Shown: positions 15,083-64,000 of the stretch, piece by piece | How positions within the stretch are numbered: position 1 is the stretch's first letter | Layout of the letters: every line of letters begins with the position of its first letter | DNA from: Mytilus edulis | Lineage: Eukaryota | Reading direction: 5' to 3' | Assembly: GCF_963676685.1 (NCBI RefSeq) | Contig: NC_092353.1 | Coordinates: 26,555,690-26,619,689 of the forward strand | DNA length: 64,000 nt | Position numbers and translations under genes: made by a program | Notes under the pieces: model-generated | Told to the model about the DNA's origin: nothing | Databases searched by the model: none | The model's input: the letters and a program-made list of their open reading frames with translations, nothing else

Positions 15083-18000
15083 AGAATCACTGATACATCG
15101 TACCTACACCCACCAAAACACTCATGTATCTATTCTCTTTACAACAAGCTTAGAGAATCACTGCTACATCGTACCTACACCCACCAAAACACTCATGTAT
15201 CTATTCTCTTTACAACAAGCTTAGAGAATCACTGCTACATCGTACCTACACCCACCAAAACACTCATGTATCTATTCTCTTTACAACAAGCTTAGAGAAT
15301 CACTGCTACATCTTACCTACACCCACCAAAACACTCATGTATCTATTCTCTTTACAACAAGCTTAGAGAATCACTGCTACATCGTACCTACACCCATCAA
15401 AACACTCATGTATCTATTCTCTTTACAACAAGCTTAGAGAATCACTGCTACATCGTACCTACACCCACCAAAACACTCATGTATCTATTCTCTTTACAAC
15501 AAGCTTAGAGAATCACTGCTACATTGTACCTACACCCACCAAAACACTCATGTATCTCTTCTCTTTACAACAAGCTTAGAGAATCACTGCTACATCGTAC
15601 CTACACCCACCAAAACACTCATGTATCTATTCTCTTTACAACAAGCTTAGAGAATCACTGCTACATCGTACCTACACCCACCAAAACACTCATGTATCTA
15701 TTCTCTTTACAACAAGCTTAGAGAATCACTGCTACATCGTACCTACACCCACCAAAACACTCATGTATCTATTCTCTTTACAACAAGCTTAGAGAATCAC
15801 TGCTACATTGTACCTACACCCACCAAAACACTCATGTATCTATTCTCTTTACAACAAGCTTAGAGAATCACTGCTACATTGTACCTACACCCACCAAAAC
15901 ACTCATGTATCTATTCTCTTTACAACAAGCTTAGAGAATCACTGCTACATCGTACCTACACCCACCAAAACACTCGTGTATCTATTCTCTTTACAACAAG
16001 CTTAGAGAATCACTGCTACATCGTACCTACACCCACCAAAACACTCGTGTATCTCTTCTCTTTACAACAAGCTTAGAGAATCACTGCTACATCGTACCTA
16101 CACCCACCAAAACACTCATGTATCTATTCTCTTTACAACAAGCTTAGAGAATCACTGCTACATCGTACCTACACCCAACCAAAACACTCATGTATCTATT
16201 CTCTTTACAACAAGCTTAGAGAATCACTGCTACATCGTACCTACACCCACCAAAACACTCATGTATCTATTCTCTTTACAACAAGCTTAGAGAATCACTG
16301 CTACATCGTACCTACACCCACCAAAACACTCATGTATCTATTCTCTTTACAACAAGCTTAGAGAATCACTGCTACATCTTACCTACACCCACCAAAACAC
16401 TCATGTATCTATTCTCTTTACAACAAGCTTAGAGAATCACTGTTACATTGTACCTACACCCACCAAAACACTCATGTATCTATTCTCTTTACAACAAGCT
16501 TAGAGAATCACTGCTACATCGTACCTACACCCACCAAAACACTCATGTATCTATTCTCTTTACAACAAGCTTAGAGAATCACTGCTACATTGTACCTACA
16601 CCCACCAAAACACTCATGTATCTCTTCTCTTTACAACAAGCTTAGAGAATCACTGTTACATCGTACCTACACCCATCAAAACAGTCGTGTATCTATTCTC
16701 TTTACAACAAGCTTAGAGAATCACTGCTACATCGTACCTACACCCACCAAAACACTCATGTATCTATTCTCTTTACAACAAGCTTAGAGAATCACTGCTA
16801 CATCGTACCTACACCCACCAAAACACTCATGTATCTATTCTCTTTACAACAAGCTTAGAGAATCACTGTTACATCTTACCTACACCCACCAAAACACTCA
16901 TGTATCTATTCTCTTTACAACAAGCTTAGAGAATCACTGCTACATCTTACCTACACCCAACCAAAACACTCATGTATCTCTTCTCTTTACAACAAGCTTA
17001 GAGAATCACTGTTACATCGTACCTACACCCATCAAAACAGTCGTGTATCTATTCTCTTTACAACAAGCTTAGAGAATCACTGCTACATCTTACCTACACC
17101 CAACCAAAACACTCATGTATCTCTTCTCTTTACAACAAGCTTAGAGAATCACTGCTACATCGTACCTACACCCACCAAAACACTCATGTATCTATTCTCT
17201 TTACAACAAGCTTAGAGAATCACTGCTACATCGTACCTACACCCACCAAAACACTCATGTACATCGTACCTACACCCACCAAAACACTCGTGTACATCGT
17301 ACCTACACCCACCAAAACACTCATGTATCTCTTCTCTTTACAACAAACTTAGAGAATCACTGCTACATCGTACCTACACCCACCAAAACACTCATGTATC
17401 TCTTCTCTTTACAACAAGCTTAGAGAATCACTGTTACATCGTACCTACACCCAACCAAAACACTCATGTATCTCCTCTCTTTACAACAAGCTTAGAGAAT
17501 CACTGCTACATCGTACCTACACCCACCAAAACACTCATGTATCTATTCTCTTTACAACAAGCTTAGAGAATCACTGCTACATCGTACCTACACCCAACCA
17601 AAACACTCATGTATCTATTCTCTTTACAACAAGCTTAGAGAATCACTGCTACATCGTACCTACACCCACCAAAACACTCATGTATCTATTCTCTTTACAA
17701 CAAGCTTAGAGAATCACTGCTACATCGTACCTACACCCAACCAAAACACTCATGTATCTATTCTCTTTACAACAAGCTTAGAGAATCACTGCTACATCGT
17801 ACCTACACCCACCAAAACACTCATGTATCTATTCTCTTTACAACAAGCTTAGAGAATCACTGCTACATCGTACCTACACCCAACCAAAACACTCATGTAT
17901 CTATTCTCTTTACAACAAGCTTAGAGAATCACTGTTACATCGTACCTACACCCACCAAAACACTCATGTATCTCCTCTCTTTACAACAAGCTTAGAGAAT

Positions 18001-19405
18001 CACTGCTACATCGTACCTACACCCACCAAAACACTCATGTATCTCTTCTCTTTACAACAAGCTTAGAGAATCACTGCTACATCGTACCTACACCCACCAA
18101 AACACTCATGTATCTATTCTCTTTACAACAAGCTTAGAGAATCACTGCTACATCGTACCTACACCCACCAAAACACTCATGTATCTATTCTCTTTACAAC
18201 AAGCTTAGAGAATCACTGCTACATCTTACCTACACCCACCAAAACACTCATGTATCTATTCTCTTTACAACAAGCTTAGAGAATCACTGCTACATCGTAC
18301 CTACACCCATCAAAACACTCATGTATCTATTCTCTTTACAACAAGCTTAGAGAATCACTGTTACATCTTACCTACACCCACCAAAACACTCATGTATCTA
18401 TTCTCTTTACAACAAGCTTAGAGAATCACTGCTACATCGTACCTACACCCACCAAAACACTCATGTATCTATTCTCTTTACAACAAGCTTAGAGAATCAC
18501 TGCTACATCTTACCTACACCCACCAAAACACTCATGTATCTATTCTCTTTACAACAAGCTTAGAGAATCACTGCTACATCGTACCTACACCCATCAAAAC
18601 ACTCATGTATCTATTCTCTTTACAACAAGCTTAGAGAATCACTGCTACATCGTACCTACACCCACCAAAACACTCATGTATCTATTCTCTTTACAACAAG
18701 CTTAGAGAATCACTGCTACATCTTACCTACACCCACCAAAACACTCATGTATCTATTCTCTTTACAACAAGCTTAGAGAATCACTGCTACATCGTACCTA
18801 CACCCATCAAAACACTCATGTATCTATTCTCTTTACAACAAGCTTAGAGAATCACTGTTACATCTTACCTACACCCACCAAAACACTCATGTATCTATTC
18901 TCTTTACAACAAGCTTAGAGAATCACTGCTACATCGTACCTACACCCACCAAAACACTCATGTATCTATTCTCTTTACAACAAGCTTAGAGAATCACTGC
19001 TACATCGTACCTACACCCAACCAAAACACTCATGTATCTATTCTCTTTACAACAAGCTTAGAGAATCACTGCTACATCGTACCTACACCCACCAAAACAC
19101 TCATGTATCTATTCTCTTTACAACAAGCTTAGAGAATCACTGTTACATCGTACCTACACCCACCAAAACACTCATGTATCTATTCTCTTTACAACAAGCT
19201 TAGAGAATCACTGCTACATCGTACCTACACCCACCAAAACACTCATGTACATCGTACCTACACCCACCAAAACACTCGTGTACATCGTACCTACACCCAC
19301 CAAAACACTCATGTATCTCTTCTCTTTACAACAAGCTTAGAGAATCACTGCTACATCGTACCTACACCCAACCAAAACACTCATGTATCTCCTCTCTTTA
19401 CAAGA
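15083..19405. repeat. Satellite DNA array, 71-bp monomer (about 61 copies; consensus ~catcgtacctacacccaccaaaacactcatgtatctattctctttacaacaagcttagagaatcactgcta), with monomer variants and a ~2-kb higher-order periodicity
   Basis: Head-to-tail 71-bp periodicity is directly visible. Recurrent variant sites are catcgt/cattgt/catctt, caccaaaac/caaccaaaac/catcaaaac and tctattc/tctcttc/tctcctc. The paired truncated ~35-bp units at 17250-17320 recur at 19238-19310. Confidence 0.95.
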
Positions 19406-21229
19406 AACTTCGTATACTTTATTTTTGTATTTGTACAAAGATATTTAAAGACATGTACCATCTGCAGAAGTGATGTCAACTTTAATTTGGATCCTAGATT
19501 TTGAATTGTTTGACCGGTTTTACTGTTAATGTCCTCCTTATCTTTTACTCCCTTAAATAACATGTTATGTTGCTTTTTACTACAACACCTACTTACATGG
19601 AAGGTTGAAGGTTGGGGGGAAAAATGAAGGAACCCAAATGATGTACTTAAGTTTTTCCAAATTGTAATGAAAAATACAAGAACCATGCATGCAATAATCT
19701 TACTTGTGTTCCATGAACCAATGAAAACGGAAGTAAGCAGCAAACCAATATACCTTTCACAAAATACTCAGAAGATCAGAATGCAAACACAGTCTTAATT
19801 ATTATTCAACCTTATACATAATGATACATATACTTCTGTATCAAAACCATTATGATTATTACTTGGATGTACTTCAAAAGTTTAAATATACATGTACTAT
19901 TCTGAACCATATTTATCCTATGGTTATTGAAACCAATTGGCTGTTAATCTTCTGTTCTATTTTCCATTGACAACTTTTGACCTACAAATTAGATTATGGA
20001 ACCTAAAACCTTCATGTCAACAAATACATCTTTAATGGCTCTTATAAAATAAATCAAGTTTCACAAATCTCTGTTATATAAGCTTCTTTATGGATAAATG
20101 TGCTACATTGCACAATTTTTCCCTTGAGATTAAATTTCACAGACATCTAGAACAAATCTTATAGAAAACAGAAAACTTTACCACTACTAAAGTAAACAAT
20201 GAATGGAGGATTGAGGAAATTCAATGAATGTCTACTTAATTCACAAATAATCCTTAGTGCACTGCTTGTGGTGTGCACAATATTACATAATCTAATTCAT
20301 TCTAAGTAACGTAAATAAAACATCAAGATGCATCAAATAATCTTTACAAATTTCACTGCACATTGGTGGACATAATTTTTTTTCAATACAAGTCATTCTG
20401 AAAAATCTTAGAAGTTATACTTGACTTATGTTGCCAAGTCATAACTGAATCAAGTAGAGTTTAATTAGAATTTTACAGACTTGGCCCCATGTCCATTAAT
20501 TGACTTATTCAGGACAGCTTTTTACCAAAATTTAAGAATTATGATTAAGTTGTATCTTCTGAAAATTTGAGCCCACTCCTATACCTCCTCCTTAAAAATA
20601 ACCAACAAATAAAAACAACCAAAAGAATATTTTACTTGAACTGAAATTCAATTGGATTTTTGCTGATGCTTCATAGACAAAGATTCCATCGGTAACTTAA
20701 ATTGAGATGAAAAATGGACATGCAAGTTTGGATAGCTATAGCCAAAAGCATAGGGAGTCAAACTTTTAACCTGAGATTTATGCTTTATTAAAACATCATC
20801 AAAGGTCAATTGTCTATCAATATCTTGTATTTGAACCACATTAAAGGTTAATGGTTTGATAAATTACCTTGTTAACGTACACATTTTTTAACCATAAGAT
20901 AGTTTTTTGCATAAAATTTCAACTTTCCCCGATAAAACAAATATTCATTATTATGATTAATCACAATACAAAGTAACCTTCAATATAATACAAGAGAACT
21001 TTAAATCGAGCAAAACAATACACTTATAATTTTGTTTTCCTTGTTTTCTTGACTGAATGGGTTTTAAAAATATTAAGATCAATTTTTTGAGTGAAAAATG
21101 TATAGTCCATCTAACTCAACCTCAGAGACTACCACCAGCCCCTTTTTTCAAATTTATTTTTTTTATATTTTACACTGCATTACAATTATATCAGAAACAG
21201 ATACACCTAAATTAATAAAATTTTAAAAA

Positions 21230-41493: not shown

Positions 41494-43245
41494 CTAGAAT
41501 CCAGAATATTCCAACTCATAAATTTTGGCTTTTAAAGTTTCTTGGCTGTCCCTTGTATTTGAGCATCCTACATAAATATGTCCTTCTGTAGACAAAGTGA
41601 GTCTACATGGATATATAATTCCAATGTCATGCAGATTGTAATGACCAATAAATTTCCCCTCAGAGTTCAATATGTGTAGTGTAGAAATGAATATATCTGT
41701 AACTAAAATATTATCTGCAGGAGTTGTAAGCAGGTCAGAGGGCGTAAATGTTTTTTCTTCAGTGTTGATTTTTGGTTGACCAATGTACACCTGTTTGATA
41801 TCTCCTTCTTTTCCTAATACCAAGACTCTACAATCAGAATCTATCCCATCCACAACACAGATATTGCCATTGTTGGTGCTTGTAATTAATCTAGGCCGTG
41901 TAAATAATGGTTCTTTGTTGCTGTCTTCTTCATATTTTTCCAAGCATCCACCATCCTGGCCCATCACTACCACAGCAGCCTTCGTTCCTCTTCGTCCTAC
42001 ACCTACTATAACTCTGTTATCTTTGGTTATATGGACACATACTGGTTGACTTTGTGATGTACAATTTGTATATGGTCTCACAACATAATTGGATTCATCA
42101 TGTTTGAGCCATACAGTGCTACTATTGATAATAAACAGTTTTGTTTCACTGATAATAAACAGTTTTGTTTCACCTAAGGCTGCTTCAACCAGGTTTGTGC
42201 ATGCATTCATTGCTGCCATGTCACAAATAGAAAAACAGTTTGACTCTGACATAATCGTAATATTTTGATTATCAAATTTTATATGTTGCAACTTTTCAAG
42301 AATACCATCATAAATCCACAGAGTACCATCAGAACATCTGCAAATATTATGAACATTTCTTAATTGTGTGGTGAATTGTTTAGCAATTTTAAACTCAATT
42401 TTAGGATGTTGAATTTCCAAGTTTCCTCTATTTTCCATTGATCCAAAATTTACCATTGTAATTTTGTCTGGCAAGAATCTCCCCAATAATGAAAACTCAA
42501 GGTTTTCTTGTGGTGTAGCTCCACACAAAGAAACAGCAAATTTATCAAAATCATCAAAGAATTTGACAAAATCTTTTGAAGTTGTAATACTTTTTACAGT
42601 GTTACTCTTCCTCTGTAATTTTTTTAAGGTTTTCTTAATCTTGCTATGCTTTGCCCCGATTTCCTGGCTATTTAATTCCCATGTCTGCTCCAGATCTTTT
42701 ACAAGATTATCAGCATGCTTATCAACTTCACACTTAAAAGCATCCCTGTGACTAAGGATATCTTGCTTGATTTTTCTAAATTTAGCATCTTCCTGATCTT
42801 TTATGTCCTGAACTTTGTGTAATGTACTGGTCAAATTATGTATACTTTCATCAGCTTTCTTCTGTCCACTTTTAGTTATCGTCTTTTTATCATTAAGCTC
42901 TTCTTCATCAATAAAGGTGTGTCCATTGTGGACTTTGGTTACACATTTTAAACAGATGACTTTCTTACAAGTTTGACAGTATACACAGCAAGCCTGGTCT
43001 GGATGTTCTAGACATTTAACATCTCTAAAGTTAAATGTATCCACTTCTTCTTCCAGATCCAGCTCTTTAATGTCTCTAATCCTATGTTCAGTTGCATTTT
43101 TAAATCTAGCATGGACTTTATCCTTGCATCGGCTGCACATTAAAAGTTGACAGTCCAAACATTTAAATTTGATTTTATTCCCACCATCACAAAGTTCACA
43201 ACCTACTGGAATTTGTCCTCTTTGTAAAGACTTAGAAGAAGCCAT
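41494..43245 (-). CDS. Intronless TRIM-like protein (583 aa): two B-box zinc fingers, a coiled-coil and a C-terminal NHL-like beta-propeller, with no RING finger
   Basis: Uninterrupted 583-codon ORF. N-terminal CELCDGGNKIKFKCLDCQLLMCSRCKDKVHARF is B-box1-like. CLEHPDQACCVYCQTCKKVICLKCVTKVHNGH fits the B-box2 pattern C-x2-H-x7-C-x7-C-x2-C-x5-H-x2-H. A charged heptad-like region spans aa ~115-240. C-terminal motifs GNICVVDGIDSDCRVLVLGKEG and DNILVTDIFISTLHILNSEGKFIGHY are NHL-like. Confidence 0.8.
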   Translation of the reverse strand: MASSKSLQRGQIPVGCELCDGGNKIKFKCLDCQLLMCSRCKDKVHARFKNATEHRIRDIKELDLEEEVDTFNFRDVKCLEHPDQACCVYCQTCKKVICLKCVTKVHNGHTFIDEEELNDKKTITKSGQKKADESIHNLTSTLHKVQDIKDQEDAKFRKIKQDILSHRDAFKCEVDKHADNLVKDLEQTWELNSQEIGAKHSKIKKTLKKLQRKSNTVKSITTSKDFVKFFDDFDKFAVSLCGATPQENLEFSLLGRFLPDKITMVNFGSMENRGNLEIQHPKIEFKIAKQFTTQLRNVHNICRCSDGTLWIYDGILEKLQHIKFDNQNITIMSESNCFSICDMAAMNACTNLVEAALGETKLFIISETKLFIINSSTVWLKHDESNYVVRPYTNCTSQSQPVCVHITKDNRVIVGVGRRGTKAAVVVMGQDGGCLEKYEEDSNKEPLFTRPRLITSTNNGNICVVDGIDSDCRVLVLGKEGDIKQVYIGQPKINTEEKTFTPSDLLTTPADNILVTDIFISTLHILNSEGKFIGHYNLHDIGIIYPCRLTLSTEGHIYVGCSNTRDSQETLKAKIYELEYSGF

Positions 43246-46425: not shown

Positions 46426-46470
46426 ATGCCGAGAATTATGATAAAAGGAGGTGTTTGGCGTAACACGGAG
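46426..46470 (+). CDS. CDC5L: CDC5L (cell division cycle 5-like / Cef1 pre-mRNA splicing factor) exon 1: MPRIMIKGGVWRNTE followed by a GTAAAT donor
   Basis: ATG in a ccaagATGcc context. The 15 codons are identical to the conserved CDC5L N-terminus. The donor GT is at 46471. Confidence 0.85.
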
Positions 46471-46489
46471 GTAAATGTCCATACATTAT

Positions 46490-47577
46490 TGGAAGTTTTT
46501 TACTCTTTTTAATATACATTAATGATTTTCCAGAATACCTGGAACACAGCAAACTACGACTCTTCGCTGATGACAGTATTATATACCGAGAAATAACATG
46601 TCAACAAGACTGCACAAATTTACAAAAAGATCTTAACGCAGCAGCGAAATGGGAGGCTGATTGGCTCATGGCCTTCCATCCTGGAAAATGCACTATCTTA
46701 ACCATCACACAAAAAAAACAACCATTTAAACACGATTACATCCTTCATAACCATACTTTAGAACTAGTAACATCTGCAAAATATCTTGGCGTAACCCTAC
46801 AGTCTAACTTAAAATGGAACATTCACTACAACAACATCGTATCAAATGCAAATAAATCTCTTGGCTTTCTTAGGCGAAACTTAAAAATTTCTAACTCCAG
46901 TATCAAATCCCGTGCTTACCAATCAATAGTGAGACCAAAACTCGAATATGCCTGTAGTCTATGGGATCCACACACAGCAGATTATAAAAATAAGCTAGAA
47001 ATGGTACAGAGGCGTGCGGCCCGATATGTATGTAACAATTACCACAACACCAGTAGCGTTACATCCATGTTAAACGAACTACAATGGCCCTCACTCAGTG
47101 AGCGCCGCCTCAAAACCAGACTTATCATGTTCTACAAGGTCATCCATGGACTCATTGCAATCCCATCACTAGTCCTCATACCATCAGATACTAGAACAAG
47201 AAAATGACATACTCAAACATTTCGGCAAATATCCACCTCTAAAGACAGCTACAAATGGTCATTCTTTCCGCAAACAATCATTCAATGGAACATGTTGCCA
47301 CAAGTTGTGGTAGCAAGTCAAACCATTGAAATTTACAGAGATCAGTTGACACCAACTGTTCTCCACAACATAATTTAATTCTATAAATAACAATGTACAT
47401 ATTTTTTAATCACTTGTTGTTTTCTTTCATGTAAATATCACCAAGTATTCTACTAAGTTAAAGATAAATTTTTGTTCATATTTTTTAATCATATACTCCG
47501 CGCATGCAACAGTTCGTAATCTTCAATAATAATGAAGCTGTAACTGTATATCAGAAGAAGAAGAAGAAGAAGAAGTT
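46490..47577 (+). mobile_element. 5'-truncated non-LTR retrotransposon fragment (CR1/L2/RTE-like RT C-terminal domain plus 3' tail ending in an (AAG)7 microsatellite), located in CDC5L intron 1
   Basis: In-frame translation gives ..LLFLIYINDFPEYLEHSKLRLFADDSIIYREI..LQKDLNAAAKWEADWLMAFHPGKC..KYLGVTL.., which contains the FADD catalytic motif and a YINDxP motif typical of CR1-clade RTs. The ORF decays after 47207, and the element ends in (gaa)n at 47556-47576. Confidence 0.8.
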
Positions 47578-54160: not shown

Positions 54161-54169
54161 TTTAAATAT

Positions 54170-54750
54170 TAATCCAATCTTGGCCAACGTCATCTTTGGG
54201 GTATCTAGTTTGAAAATGTGTCCGATGACCTGGCCATCCAACCAAGATGGCCGCCATGGCTAAAAATAGAACAGGGGTAAAATGTAGATTTTGGCTTATA
54301 ACTCTGAAACCAAAGCATTTAGAGCAAATCTGACAAGGAGCTAAATTGTTAATCAAGTCAATATCTATCTGCCCTGAAATTTTTAGATGAATTGGACAAC
54401 TGGTTGTTGGGTTGCTGCCCCCCAATTGGTAATTTTTAAAGAAATTTTGCCGTTTTTGGTTATTATCTTGAATACTAATATAGATAGAGATAAACTGTAA
54501 ACAGCAATAATGTTCAGCAAAGTAAGATCTACAAATAAGTTAACATGACCAAAATGGTCAATTGACCCCTTAAGGAGTTATTGCCCTTTATAGTCAATTT
54601 TTAACAATTTTCATTAATTTGGTAAATTTATGTAAATTTTTACCAAGTAATTTTCTCTGTTACTAATGGGCAAAGTTCATTATAGATATAATTGTAAGAA
54701 GCAAGAACGTTCAGTAAAGTAAGAACTTCAAACACATCACCATCACCAAA
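54170..54750. repeat. Solo, partial copy of the 501-bp repeat family, located in CDC5L intron 9
   Basis: High similarity to 61740-62190 (ggggtatctagtttgaaaatgtg...ccaagatggccgccatggctaaaaatagaaca...ttgggttgctgcccc). Confidence 0.85.
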
Positions 54751-58665: not shown

Positions 58666-58846
58666 AGAGACCTCAAAGACCAGTTAAAACATGGTTTGGC
58701 CAGTCTACCTCGTCCTAAAAATGATTATGAAATAGTGGTTCCCGAAGACATGGAGCAGGATATACATGAACCAATGCAGACAGACGATTACATTGAGGAT
58801 CAGGCAGACATTGATGCTGCATCAGAGGAGGAGAGGAGAGCTATCA
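58666..58846 (+). CDS. CDC5L: CDC5L exon 14 (RDLKDQLKHGLASLPRPKNDYEIVVPEDMEQDIHEPMQTDDYIEDQADIDAASEEERRAI-)
   Basis: Acceptor tgtttttag; donor a|GTAAGA. Matches conserved LPAPKNDFEIVLPE..YIEDAADVDA. Confidence 0.85.
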
Positions 58847-59219
58847 GTAAGATATACATACAGCTAAATGCCATCATTCAAGACTTTGATAAACTTATTG
58901 TTAATTCAGAAATTTTTTATGATCTTTTTATTATAGCAAACAATTGCAACCTATTGGTGACACTTTTTTTAAATCTTTGTAGAGTTATTAGTATACTATA
59001 TATACTGAAATGACAATTACTAATTTGGAATTTCTGTCCATTGTTTAACAAACTGAACAAATACAAACACAAATTTCTAAACTTGCAGTAAAGTTTTCAA
59101 AACATTCATTGATTTACATCAAATTAGGAAGAGTATGGTGGTTTCAGGCTGCACTCAGCAAAGCATTTTATTTTATATAATTTAATAGAAAGGTGAAATA
59201 ACCAGTGGTTATTTTATAG

Positions 59220-59344
59220 GACAAAAAGAATTAAGAATGAGATCTCAGTCAGTACAGAGAGACATGCCCCGTCCAACAGATGTCAACAGTAATATACTGA
59301 GAGTGGCTGGTCCTGGTGATCCTGCTCTTACAGATCTACAGAAG
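59220..59344 (+). CDS. CDC5L: CDC5L exon 15 (RQKELRMRSQSVQRDMPRPTDVNSNILRVAGPGDPALTDLQK)
   Basis: Acceptor ttttatag; donor GTAAAA. Matches conserved DLPRPSEVNETILRP...PLTDLQK. Confidence 0.85.
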
Positions 59345-59738
59345 GTAAAATCAATAGACATTTTAATACTTAACAATTCTACCAACCAAAAAGTTACCAA
59401 TTGTACAGCATGGCTCAACCCTTTGTCGTCTATGTCTAATTTAGTATTTGTTCTTTTGTACTACACTTAGGTGTAATTCAACAGGTTTTCATGTTTAAAC
59501 TCTGTTTGCTAGACCGGAAAAGCATTATCTATTTAGTATAGCATAAATATAATACTGTGGATTCATTAATTTTCCTGGATACATGAACATGATTTCATTG
59601 TTTGGTTCAAGTCTGCAGACAAGTCTAATAGAAATCTGTGATCTGATGAACATCCTTACAATTAATGAAAAGTGATACACAATGTATAAATAAATAAAGT
59701 AAATAGAATTTAATTATTTCTTTGTTCTCTATTTGTAG

Positions 59739-59933: not shown

Positions 59934-61158
59934 GTATAGTTTACATAGTGTTGCACATCAATTCGCCTTTTCTGAAACTTGAGGACTATGGGTAATCTCA
60001 TTGTTCGTACACCAAAATGAATATAACGCCACGTCATTGGTTGAATTTCCATTGTTTATGATGTTTTGATATACACTTTTAAAAATATAACCCAGGATGC
60101 ATTAGATTCTGAAACAGTGAATTATTGCATTTGAGTCTCAACAGTATTGGTATTGCAAAGGGTTACTTGAAGCTTGACGTCCACCTATAAACATCCTGTT
60201 AGCCATTTACCTCTACTCAATAGAGAGTTATTATAGATAATGTACATATCACAATCATTCATAACTAATAACAGCCTATATTAAGGTTTCATTGCAATGA
60301 ATTCATGAGCAACATGACAGGTCAAAGGTCATTAATAATTTTAAACTCGCACAAATATATATCCAAGAAAATAATTACTTTTCTCTCTTTCAATTTTTTC
60401 AAATTATTTATTGCTAACGGAATGTATTCTGTTATATATTTACATAAAAGTTTTTGAATAACTGGTCATTATCATGATATATGGACTGCCCACAGGACAT
60501 TGGTAGTGATAATGACTGAGCCGGAGGCGAGATCATAATCGCTGTTACAGTCAATACCACTTTCCTACGGGCAGTCTATATATCACGATAATGACCAGTT
60601 ATTCAAAAACTTTTATGTTTATTTCATTGAGGAACCATGTTTTTGAAAATTCTCATAAATTCAAAATGTCCAAAGCAAACTCAAGTAGTTGTACAATTTC
60701 TATGACAAAGAGTGAAGACAAGTCGTAGTAATACTACCATTCATTTTAGAGCATTTTTTCAGGATATGAATACTCAATCAAGTTCTCTATAATTTTATAA
60801 TTTACCAAAATAACAGGAAATGTTTTATTAAAGGAACATCTCTCTAAACAGAGAAACCACACCCCAACGGTCATTAACAGACGGAAACCGGGCCCCACTG
60901 GTCATTATCATCTAAAACGACCGGTTTTCTGGTCCGTTTTGTTCTGTTAATGATCAATGGAATTTATTACTGAAGAGAATCTTATTTTCAACCGATATGA
61001 AAAAATATATATTTCAATAATAAAATTTCCTTTACTGTGAAAGTGTTTTCTGTATACCCTTGTATACCCTTGTTTATACATGTTGTGCTAGGTTGTATGT
61101 TACAATACAGAAAATTCATTATTTAGAAAAAGAAATAATGCTTGCTGTAAAAATCTAA

Positions 61159-61488
<330 letters not shown>

Positions 61489-61699
61489 TAAAGTTCTGTT
61501 TTCAAGTTGTATATTGTGTGTACATGATAACATGGTAAATGTAAAATCAATTCTTTTATATATTTTGATCTCAATTTGATTCATTTTATTTTGACCAGCC
61601 TGTTGATTTATACCTATGTGATTTATTTTTAGCTCGACTGGCCCGAAGGGCCAAGTGAGCTTTTCCCATCACTTGGCGTCCGTCGTCCGTCGTCGTCGT

Positions 61700-64000
61700 T
61701 AACTTTTACAAAAGTCTTCTCCTCTGAAACTACTGGGCCAAATTAAACCCATCTTGGCCACAATCATCATTGGGGTATCTAGTTTAAAAAATGTGTGGCG
61801 TGACCCGGCCAACCAACCAAGATGGCTGCCTTGGCTAAAAATAGAACATAGGGGTAAAATGCAGTTTTTGGCTTATAACTCAAAAACCAAAGCATTTAGA
61901 GCAAATCTGACATGGGGTAAAATTGTTTATCAGGTCAAGATCTTTCTGCCCTCTAATTTTCAGATGAATCCGACAACCCGTTGTTGGGTTGCTGCCCCTG
62001 AATTGGTAATTTTAGGGAATTTTTGCTGCTTTTGGTTATTATCTTGAATATTATTATAGATAGAGATAAACTGTAAACAGCAATAATGTTCAGCAAAGTT
62101 AGATTTACAAATAAGTCAACATGACCAAAATGGTCAGTTGACCCCTTTAGGAGTTATTGACCTTTATAGTCAATTTTTAACCATTTTTCGTAAATCTTAG
62201 TAATCTTTTACAAAAATTTTCTCCTCTGAAACTACTGGACCAAATTAAACCAAACTTGGCCACAATCATCATTGGGGTATCTAGTTTAAAAAATGTGTGG
62301 CGTGACCCGGCCAACCAACCAAGATGGCCGCCATGGCTAAAAATAGAACATAGGGGTAAAATGCAGTTTTTGGCTTATAACTCAAAAACCAAAGCATTTA
62401 GAGCAAATCTGACATGGGGTAAAATTGTTTATCAGGTCAAGATCTTTCTGCCCTCAAATTTTCAGATGAATCTGACAACCCGTTGTTGGGTTGCTGCCCC
62501 TGAATTGGTAATTTTAGGGAATTTTTGCTGTTTTTGGTTATTATCTTGAATATTATTATAGATAGAGATAAACTGTAAACAGCAATAATGTTCAACAAAG
62601 TTAGATTTACAAATAAGTCAACATGACCAAAATGGTCAGTTGACCCCTTAAGGAGTTATTGCCCTTTATAGTCATTTTTTACCAATTTTTCGTAAATCTT
62701 AGTAATCTTTTACAAAAATCTTCTCCTCTGAAGCTACTGGGCCAAATCAATCCAAACTTGGCCACAATCATCATTGGGGTATCTAATTTAAAAAATGTGT
62801 GGTGTGACCCTGCCAACCAACCAAGATGGCCGCCATGGCTAAAAATAGAACATAGGGGTAAAATGTAGATTTTGGCTTATACAGTCGAACCTCGTTGTGT
62901 CGAAGTCGAAGGGACTGGACCAAAGTATTCGACTCATCCGAGGTCGAGTTTGTCGTCATAAATTTTGAATGCATGAAATACGGTATGAGAATTGAGTAAA
63001 CTAGATACAATGAACAGTGTGCCTTTTTTCTCTCGATAAGACACTTTATGATTGTGTATTCAATCTCCATTTTAGGTCCTTCGTAATAATTAAAAACACA
63101 AGTACAGATACAAATCATGCACAAATAAAATCAATAGTCTACACAAATATTTACAAAGGTCAGTCGCTATAAATTTTGAAATCACTCGCGGCACGAAATA
63201 AGTTCTGAACGGTCTCTGATGAGGTCGTCTGCTAACATTAAATCATCATGAATTTATTATAATTGTCATAATCCTTTTATCTATGGTAATTAATGAGTTT
63301 TAAATCTAACGATTCATTTAATCTCGGCTTGGGTTAATTAGATTCGTTTCGTTTTATCTCAGGTGAAAAATGTTCAACACACTAACATGCCGCTTGAACG
63401 ATCAACAAATTAGCGGTCACCATAAACATGTCATTTTAACTGTTCTACAAACAAGTATGTTTATTCAGCTTTAATCTCTTTTGAAAATGATTAGTTGACA
63501 TAAGAAATACATCCGATTTGAATTTTTATCATTAGGTCTGCATCTTTTGAAAATTCTTACTTTCGAAGTTCGAGACATCGGGGTCAATTTACATTATTTT
63601 ACTTCGACGGGACTATAAAATTTACTCGACTTAACCGAGTATTCGAATCAACCGAGTTCCACTCATCAGAGGTAAATATGCATTGATCAAACGGGAATTT
63701 TACCGGGACCAAGAAATTACTTCGACTCATCCGAGTTTTCGACACAACCGAGTTCGACACAACGAGGTTCGACTGTAACTCTAAAACCAATGCATTTAGA
63801 GCAAATCTGACATGGGGTTAAATAATCTATTAGGTCAAGATCTATCTACCCTGAAATTTTCAAACAAATGGGACAACCCGTTGTTGGGTTGCTGCCCCTA
63901 AATTAGTAATTTTAAAGAAATTTTGCAGTTTTTGCTTATTATCTTGATTATTATTATAGATAGAGATAAACTGTAAACAGCAATAATGTTCAGCAAAGTA
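61700..64000. repeat. Tandem repeat with a 501-bp period in the CDC5L intron after exon 17. It has about 3.5 copies, and the fourth copy is interrupted by the Tc1/mariner-like MITE.
   Basis: tctcctctgaaactactgggccaaattaaac recurs at 61721, 62222 and 62723. The same 98-aa ORFs in the six-frame track repeat within it. Confidence 0.9.
62882..63775. mobile_element. Tc1/mariner-like non-autonomous element (894 bp) with perfect 23-bp TIRs CAGTCGAACCTCGTTGTGTCGAA and a TA TSD, inserted into the fourth copy of the 501-bp tandem repeat
   Basis: Intact repeat copies read ggcttataactcaaaaacc. Here ggcttaTA is followed by the element and then TAactctaaaacc. The TIRs are exact reverse complements and there is no transposase ORF. 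Confidence 0.85.

Follow-up and report, generated by a model that had tools for sequence, protein, structure and literature searches.

Miniature inverted-repeat transposable elements, or MITEs, that derive from pogo-like transposons were reportedly described by Feschotte and Mouches in 2000 and by Smit and Riggs in 1996, with Emigrant/Lemi1 of Arabidopsis and the Tigger-derived MER2 group of humans as cases in point. These elements are short, non-coding and flanked by TA, and their CAGT...CCTC-type terminal inverted repeats (TIRs) match those of a pogo-like autonomous element. We analysed an 894-bp element with TIRs near the end of a 64,000-nucleotide stretch of Mytilus edulis DNA (RefSeq assembly GCF_963676685.1, contig NC_092353.1, positions 26,555,690 to 26,619,689 of the forward strand; hereafter the window), whose host and sequence differ from those of Emigrant/Lemi1 and of the MER2 group. 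In the classification of Gao et al. (2020, Mobile DNA 11:25; PMC7386202), pogo now forms its own superfamily, apart from Tc1/mariner, within the IS630-Tc1-mariner group, and is characterised by a classical TA target-site duplication (TSD) and by TIRs mostly no longer than 40 bp. The pogoR sheet of their Table S1 contains Miye-pogo of Mizuhopecten yessoensis, an element of 2996 bp with a TA TSD and the TIR CAGTCGAACCTCGTTATCTCGAACTC, whose transposase of 547 aa carries CENP-B_N/HTH_Tnp_Tc5 and DDE_1 domains and belongs to the DD30D type. We consider it very probable that the element of the window is a non-autonomous, MITE-like DNA transposon of the pogo superfamily (IS630-Tc1-mariner group), pogoR being its most probable family. 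The element, its target site and the tandem repeat that hosts it are as follows (positions are those of the window):

62882 to 63775, plus strand: the element, 894 bp, non-autonomous and very probably pogo-type, present as a single copy in the window, GC content 35%
62880 to 62881, no strand: left TA of the TSD, from the junction comparison
63776 to 63777, no strand: right TA of the TSD, from the junction comparison
62882 to 62904, plus strand: 5′ TIR, 23 bp, CAGTCGAACCTCGTTGTGTCGAA, perfect match
63753 to 63775, minus strand: 3′ TIR, 23 bp, perfect match
61693 to 62881, plus strand: host tandem repeat with a 502-bp unit (spacing 502), copies 1 and 2 intact and left part of copy 3
63776 to 64000, plus strand: right part of the interrupted copy 3, running past the window end, 88.8% identical to unit positions 184-407
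54168 to 54611, plus strand: solo dispersed copy of the 502-bp unit, 444 bp, 88% identity, third empty site

The window has exactly two occurrences of the 23-mer CAGTCGAACCTCGTTGTGTCGAA, one on the plus strand (62882-62904) and one on the minus strand (63753-63775); no third match was found there when up to 3 mismatches were allowed, and 100 dinucleotide-preserving shuffles gave an expectation of 0 chance matches. Including the flanking TA, the two arms extend over 29 nt with 97% complementarity. The host repeat occupies 61693-62194, 62195-62696 and 62697-62881, then resumes at 63776-63999 and beyond, its copies starting 502 bp apart and the first two being 96.6% identical. Its uninterrupted copies carry GGCTTATAACTC at 61870, 62372 and 54293, each with a single TA (61876-61877, 62378-62379 and 54299-54300), two of these empty sites lying in adjacent repeat copies and the third 8.6 kb upstream. 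The filled site reads ...TTTTGGCTTA-TA-CAGTCG...CGACTG-TA-ACTCTAAAACC: on the left, the sequence tracks that of the empty sites up to GGCTTATA and then switches to CAGTCG, and on the right the element ends with CGACTG and the host repeat resumes at TAACTC. Comparison of filled and empty sites shows that the insertion duplicated one TA, exactly 2 nt. The preliminary description of this DNA, a non-autonomous TIR element with a TA TSD that can be compared in cis with three uninterrupted copies, is thus borne out by the perfect TIRs and by the single TA of each empty site. Minor details needed adjustment: the tandem repeat has a period of 502 bp and not 501, only two of the three empty sites are neighbours, and the end at 63777, unlike the start at 62882, has to be moved, since it includes the right TA of an element that stops at 63775.

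One might argue that there is no such transposon insertion at all, and that the locus is an inverted repeat that arose by chance, a chimera of the assembly or the product of another superfamily such as PIF/Harbinger or Helitron. Formally, the two extra nucleotides can be assigned to the element as an A...T placed between T and A, without any duplication. This assignment is implausible because relatives of the element in metagenome contigs (see below) carry TA at the end that the search pattern left free, in 30 of 33 independent tests as against a background TA frequency of 7%, and are hence flanked by TA at both ends. Together with the zero expectation for chance TIR matches and the precision with which the flanks rejoin paralogous sequence, this leaves the non-insertion explanation with next to no credibility. 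Among individual classes, PIF/Harbinger (Tourist-type MITEs) was rejected on its 3-bp TWA TSD, 2 nt being duplicated here, and hAT, Mutator, P, CACTA and piggyBac (TTAA) on the 2-bp TA TSD. Helitrons and Helentrons were also discarded: the element has a TSD, CAGT...ACTG ends and 23-bp TIRs, with neither 5′-TC/3′-CTRR ends nor a terminal hairpin.

The longest open reading frame (ORF) inside the element encodes 51 aa. Its ten longest stop-free segments gave no Pfam match near threshold, and Rfam found nothing inside it. No DDE/D transposase, the mark of an autonomous transposon, is encoded between the TIRs, and the element is therefore classed as non-autonomous, in agreement with the preliminary description, which had reported no transposase ORF. 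The same description called it a MITE, a reasonable label for its structure and size: it is non-coding and has TIRs and a TSD, and its 894 bp lie at the upper end of the usual range. Throughout the window, the stop-free stretches of at least 62 aa (two stretches sampled from an array of 71-bp units) contain no transposase domain; the Pfam families that they yielded are Myb/Myb_Cef, B-box, a fragment of RVT_1 and weak singletons.

The TA duplication and the TIRs place the element in the IS630-Tc1-mariner group, and a TIR of 23 bp that begins with CAGTC, bordered by a TA TSD, conforms to the format of the pogoR family (TIR up to 40 bp, CAGT-type end, TA TSD). Read inward, the 3′ TIR with the next 3 nt is identical to the published Miye-pogo TIR at 24 of 26 positions, so that the ends of the element are like those of an autonomous transposon encoding CENP-B_N/HTH_Tnp_Tc5 and DDE_1. 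Miye-pogo has the same TA target and the same CAGTC opening, but it is a 2996-bp autonomous element whereas ours is an 894-bp non-coding one, and the table provides its TIR string as the sole term of comparison. Inside the TIRs, the ends are organised as follows:

62905 to 62950, plus strand: subterminal region of end A (5′), with GGGAC at 62911-62915 followed by the inward-facing 15-nt TTCGACTCATCCGAG at 62928-62942
63608 to 63761, plus strand: subterminal region of end B (3′), with two direct modules, 63608-63665 and 63704-63761

At end A, TTCGACTCATCCGAG repeats the inner TIR imperfectly and in inverted orientation. The two modules of end B are 96 bp apart and 78% identical, and each opens at GGGAC and contains units of 15-17 nt. 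Four exact copies of the 15-nt unit TTCGNNNNANNCGAG are present in the element (0.05 expected for the whole window), all on the plus strand and starting at 62928, 63642, 63721 and 63738; the last three, at 63642-63656, 63721-63735 and 63738-63752, belong to end B. The inner part of both TIRs consists of versions of this unit that are one nucleotide shorter. The preliminary description had noted subterminal inverted GTCGAAG/TTCGAC motifs. The hexamers GTCGAA/TTCGAC are indeed strongly concentrated in the 894 bp of the element, which hold 9 of the 12 found in the window, but the units are arranged mainly as direct repeats, the terminal ones alone being inverted, and the ends are not symmetrical. 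The three GGGAC motifs of the element (62911-62915, 63609-63613 and 63705-63709) all lie on the plus strand, and the motif is thus directly oriented at both ends of an otherwise inverted-repeat element, its 5′-most copy lying 30 nt from the end.

The same layout is found in other pogoR rows of the tables of Gao et al. (PMC7386202). At one end of these elements, the TIR is followed by ~5 nt, (A/C)GGGACC, ~12 nt and an inverted copy of the inner TIR, and GGGACC/GGTCCC stands at comparable distances from the ends in many rows, from cnidarians to insects. The tabulated pogoR elements of Crassostrea gigas, Aedes aegypti, Locusta migratoria, Nilaparvata lugens and Nematostella vectensis are laid out like the 5′ end of our element, and the rows of Colubraria reticulata, Myzus and Bombyx show direct multiple units and then GGTCCC, as at its 3′ end. 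Sequence identity with the Crassostrea, Colubraria, Aedes, Locusta, Nilaparvata and Nematostella elements, which unlike ours are autonomous, is only ~50-57% over 60-78 aligned nt. In the pogoR rows consulted, it is the multi-unit end that is found upstream of the ORF, and the sense strand of our element is therefore probably the minus strand of the window.

The unit resembles the CENP-B box. CENP-B is a domesticated pogo-like transposase, and a resemblance of the putative binding units to its recognition box fits this origin. With the core of the CENP-B box, NTTCGNNNNANNCGGGN (PMC4904201), the unit TTCGNNNNANNCGAG agrees at 8 of 9 specified positions with the same spacing, one core position being changed from G to A, and it is found in the context of a transposon end, not of a centromeric satellite. 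These sequence features suggest that the TTCGNNNNANNCGAG units are putative transposase-binding sites with CENP-B-box format.

The classification has to be weighed against two neighbouring ones. Tc1-like elements share the TA TSD and the CAGT terminus with pogo-like ones, and the insertion could on that basis be a strict Tc1/mariner MITE, mobilised by a DD34E or DD34D transposase as an animal counterpart of the plant Stowaway elements. We find this very improbable in view of the extended TIR match to a tabulated pogoR element (24 of 26), of the agreement between the subterminal layout and the tabulated pogoR ends, and of a unit with the same bipartite format as the CENP-B box, the target of a domesticated DNA-binding domain of pogo type (PMC4904201), the comparison of TIRs having covered the pogo-type rows of the tables. 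The term "Tc1/mariner-like" of the preliminary description therefore remains valid in its broad older sense and fails in the strict one, the termini matching the pogo lineage. The element might otherwise belong to the pogo superfamily but derive from Tigger rather than from pogoR. Its TIR is identical over the first 14 nt to that of Tig1C of Rhodnius prolixus, a Tigger element of the DD36D type whose TIR is given as CAGTCGAACCTCGCTTAACGAGCA in the tables of Gao et al. The outermost nucleotides therefore do not tell one pogo family from another; as they are common to the superfamily, it is the extended match and the layout that support assignment to pogoR. After nucleotide 14 the Tigger TIR parts from ours, while that of Mizuhopecten holds to 24 of 26, and the layout containing GGGACC is present in many pogoR rows, the Tigger sheet having been surveyed unsystematically. 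Derivation from Tigger is on these grounds unlikely.

We then compared the element with relatives in metagenome contigs, using as query the 17-mer TACAGTCGAACCTCGTT, which comprises the TA and the first 15 nt of the TIR; the second end was sought with a 13-nt core, allowing up to 2 mismatches. The 17-mer recovered at least 120 contigs, concentrated in few sample series of the Joint Genome Institute (JGI). A few were chance bacterial matches, and in most of the contigs the termini still resembled the element beyond the 17-mer. The contig set, chance bacterial matches included, bears animal genes (MH2, homeodomain, Mo25, ankyrin/Mab-21). Among the matches listed, at least 38 different elements had both ends; they measure 173-1458 bp, mostly 580-985 bp. 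Other copies with TA TSDs, whose absence would have spoken against the preliminary description, thus exist in the form of these TA-flanked relatives. Homology continued past the 17-mer: the 54-61 nt that follow were 57-65% identical in ungapped comparison, and end B was 68-72% identical, again without gaps, to end B of the relatives over 78 nt. The end A region is collinear with end A of the relatives, with at most 1 gap column. The 5′ end of the element matched the A ends of the relatives at 23-27 of 51 positions and their B ends at 13-14 of 51, and its 3′ end matched their B ends at 28-33 of 51 and their A ends at 9-11 of 51. Like-with-like matches thus exceed cross matches, and the asymmetry of the ends is therefore a conserved character of the family, extending over ~75 nt at both ends. 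The likeness between the element and its relatives is limited to these termini. Because no other repeat is common to the window and the contigs, the hosts of the relatives are not close to the species of the window.

These relatives make up an unnamed TIR family (for example L047 4194-4823, L081 1263-2184, L097 390-1354 and L114 5545-6418) which has the same 15-nt terminus as the element, TA TSDs and similar sizes, but differs from it by an inner TIR reading TTATATCGAA instead of TTGTGTCGAA and by unrelated interiors; no transposase ORF was seen in its members. In a second subfamily (L057 1095-1911, L011 590-1390 and L065 2396-3218), the first 17-18 nt are common and the sequence continues with ...GTTAGCTCGCC/GTTACCTCGCC; its members have TA flanks and different interiors. 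The long ORFs beside TIRs in the contigs correspond to host genes (ankyrin/Mab-21, MH2, homeodomain), to reverse transcriptase or to bacterial genes, and a pair of ends 3300 bp apart in L042 is without transposase. The exact 20-mer of the TIR was absent from the metagenome and viral contig collections, the family-consensus 17-mer had no match in viral contigs, and a literature search for the TIR string returned chance primer matches only. The sole genome contig that matched an 18-mer (L124) is bacterial and looks like a chance match.

Several results weigh against the favoured classification. The window contains no other copy of the element and no autonomous partner with the same ends. An autonomous partner was not found in the metagenome contigs either, DDE_1 being absent from the 25 of 66 Pfam families listed, and the interior of the element has no match among the metagenome relatives. 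Searches of a collection of 5.8 billion proteins returned nothing, whether with the ORF of the 3′ end or with all 33 stop-free segments of the element concatenated. Finally, the Miye-pogo evidence comes from a published table and concerns a single annotated end in another species, and the first 14 nt of the TIR are those of the Rhodnius Tigger element as well.

If the element is nonetheless of pogo origin, as we favour, its mobilisation would involve a transposase of pogo type acting in trans, with its gene at another place in the genome and with the DNA-binding domains CENP-B_N and HTH_Tnp_Tc5 and the catalytic domain DDE_1. Such an enzyme would bind the 15-17-nt units of the inner TIR and of the subterminal repeats through two helix-turn-helix domains, and would excise the element at its CAGT...ACTG termini. 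Insertion would then proceed by a 2-nt staggered cut at a TA, duplicated upon repair. In the present case the insertion hit the third unit of the 502-bp tandem repeat. This event is later than the duplication of the 502-bp units, as a single copy out of four is disrupted.

The base composition of the element bears on its age. Its CpG observed/expected ratio is 1.54, compared to 0.36 for the rest of the window and to at most 0.88 in any of 623 sliding windows; no other 894-bp stretch of this CpG-poor window is as rich in CpG, and the element forms a CpG island. The interior alone contains 19 CpG for 5.5 expected (Poisson P ~5e-6). Perfect TIRs and a high CpG content in CpG-depleted surroundings suggest that the insertion is recent; alternatively, the CpG content could reflect protection against methylation rather than youth. 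Perfect TIRs and a CpG ratio four times that of the surroundings could also point further, to an element produced very recently by a pogoR transposase with continuing activity in this genome, with the conserved ends implying horizontal spread among invertebrates and an undescribed end architecture. We regard this extended proposal as rather doubtful. It builds on the asymmetric ends of ~75 nt, with direct GGGACC and CENP-B-box-like units, which are near-collinear in unrelated animal hosts; on this proposal, their architecture would be recognised by a bipartite CENP-B-type DNA-binding domain. The element offers a lead towards a pogoR transposon of the source species that may be active; active elements of the superfamily, Passer among them, have been put forward for use as genetic tools (PMC9976928).

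The insertion locus lies downstream of a CDC5L-like exon (61195-61390), and both the element and its host repeat are presumably in the intron that follows. Invertebrate genomes contain short non-autonomous IS630-Tc1-mariner/pogo elements in abundance, and a further insertion into an intron is in itself routine; it has modest value as a textbook in-cis case of TA duplication. In the orthologous contig L001 (Logan SRR29152237), the CDC5L-like exon is conserved at ~90% DNA identity and similarity stops at 61470, before the host repeat; contigs L002, L003 and L125-L127 lacked either the length or the similarity to serve as an orthologous empty site. The solo copy of the 502-bp unit at 54168-54611 sits in unrelated sequence, and the unit therefore also disperses singly. 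By analogy with bivalve satellites carried by Helentron and MITE elements, as described in two studies (PMC7492417, PMC3879986), the 502-bp array may be an internal repeat of a larger mobile element. A unique leader precedes the array at 61620-61700 and combines a GGCCCGAAGGGCC hairpin with a (GTC)n run.

Other features of the window were recorded. A single-exon ORF on the minus strand (41494-43245, 583 aa) encodes B-box zinc fingers of TRIM-like type and is without record in the protein collection. The CDC5L/CEF1-like splicing-factor gene has exons at 58666-59467 and 61159-61488 on the plus strand, which encode Myb_Cef and Myb domains. A near-perfect palindrome of 177 bp (60442-60618, 68-nt arms with 90% complementarity) looks like another hairpin-type MITE; it gave sub-threshold Rfam matches to microRNA precursors, and contig L001 of the related species lacks the whole block 60388-61134 around it. 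An RVT_1 fragment at 46464-47204 (plus strand) is probably the remnant of a long interspersed nuclear element. The array of 71-bp units is satellite-like and extends over 4.3 kb (15083-19410), with 61 copies and 95% matches.

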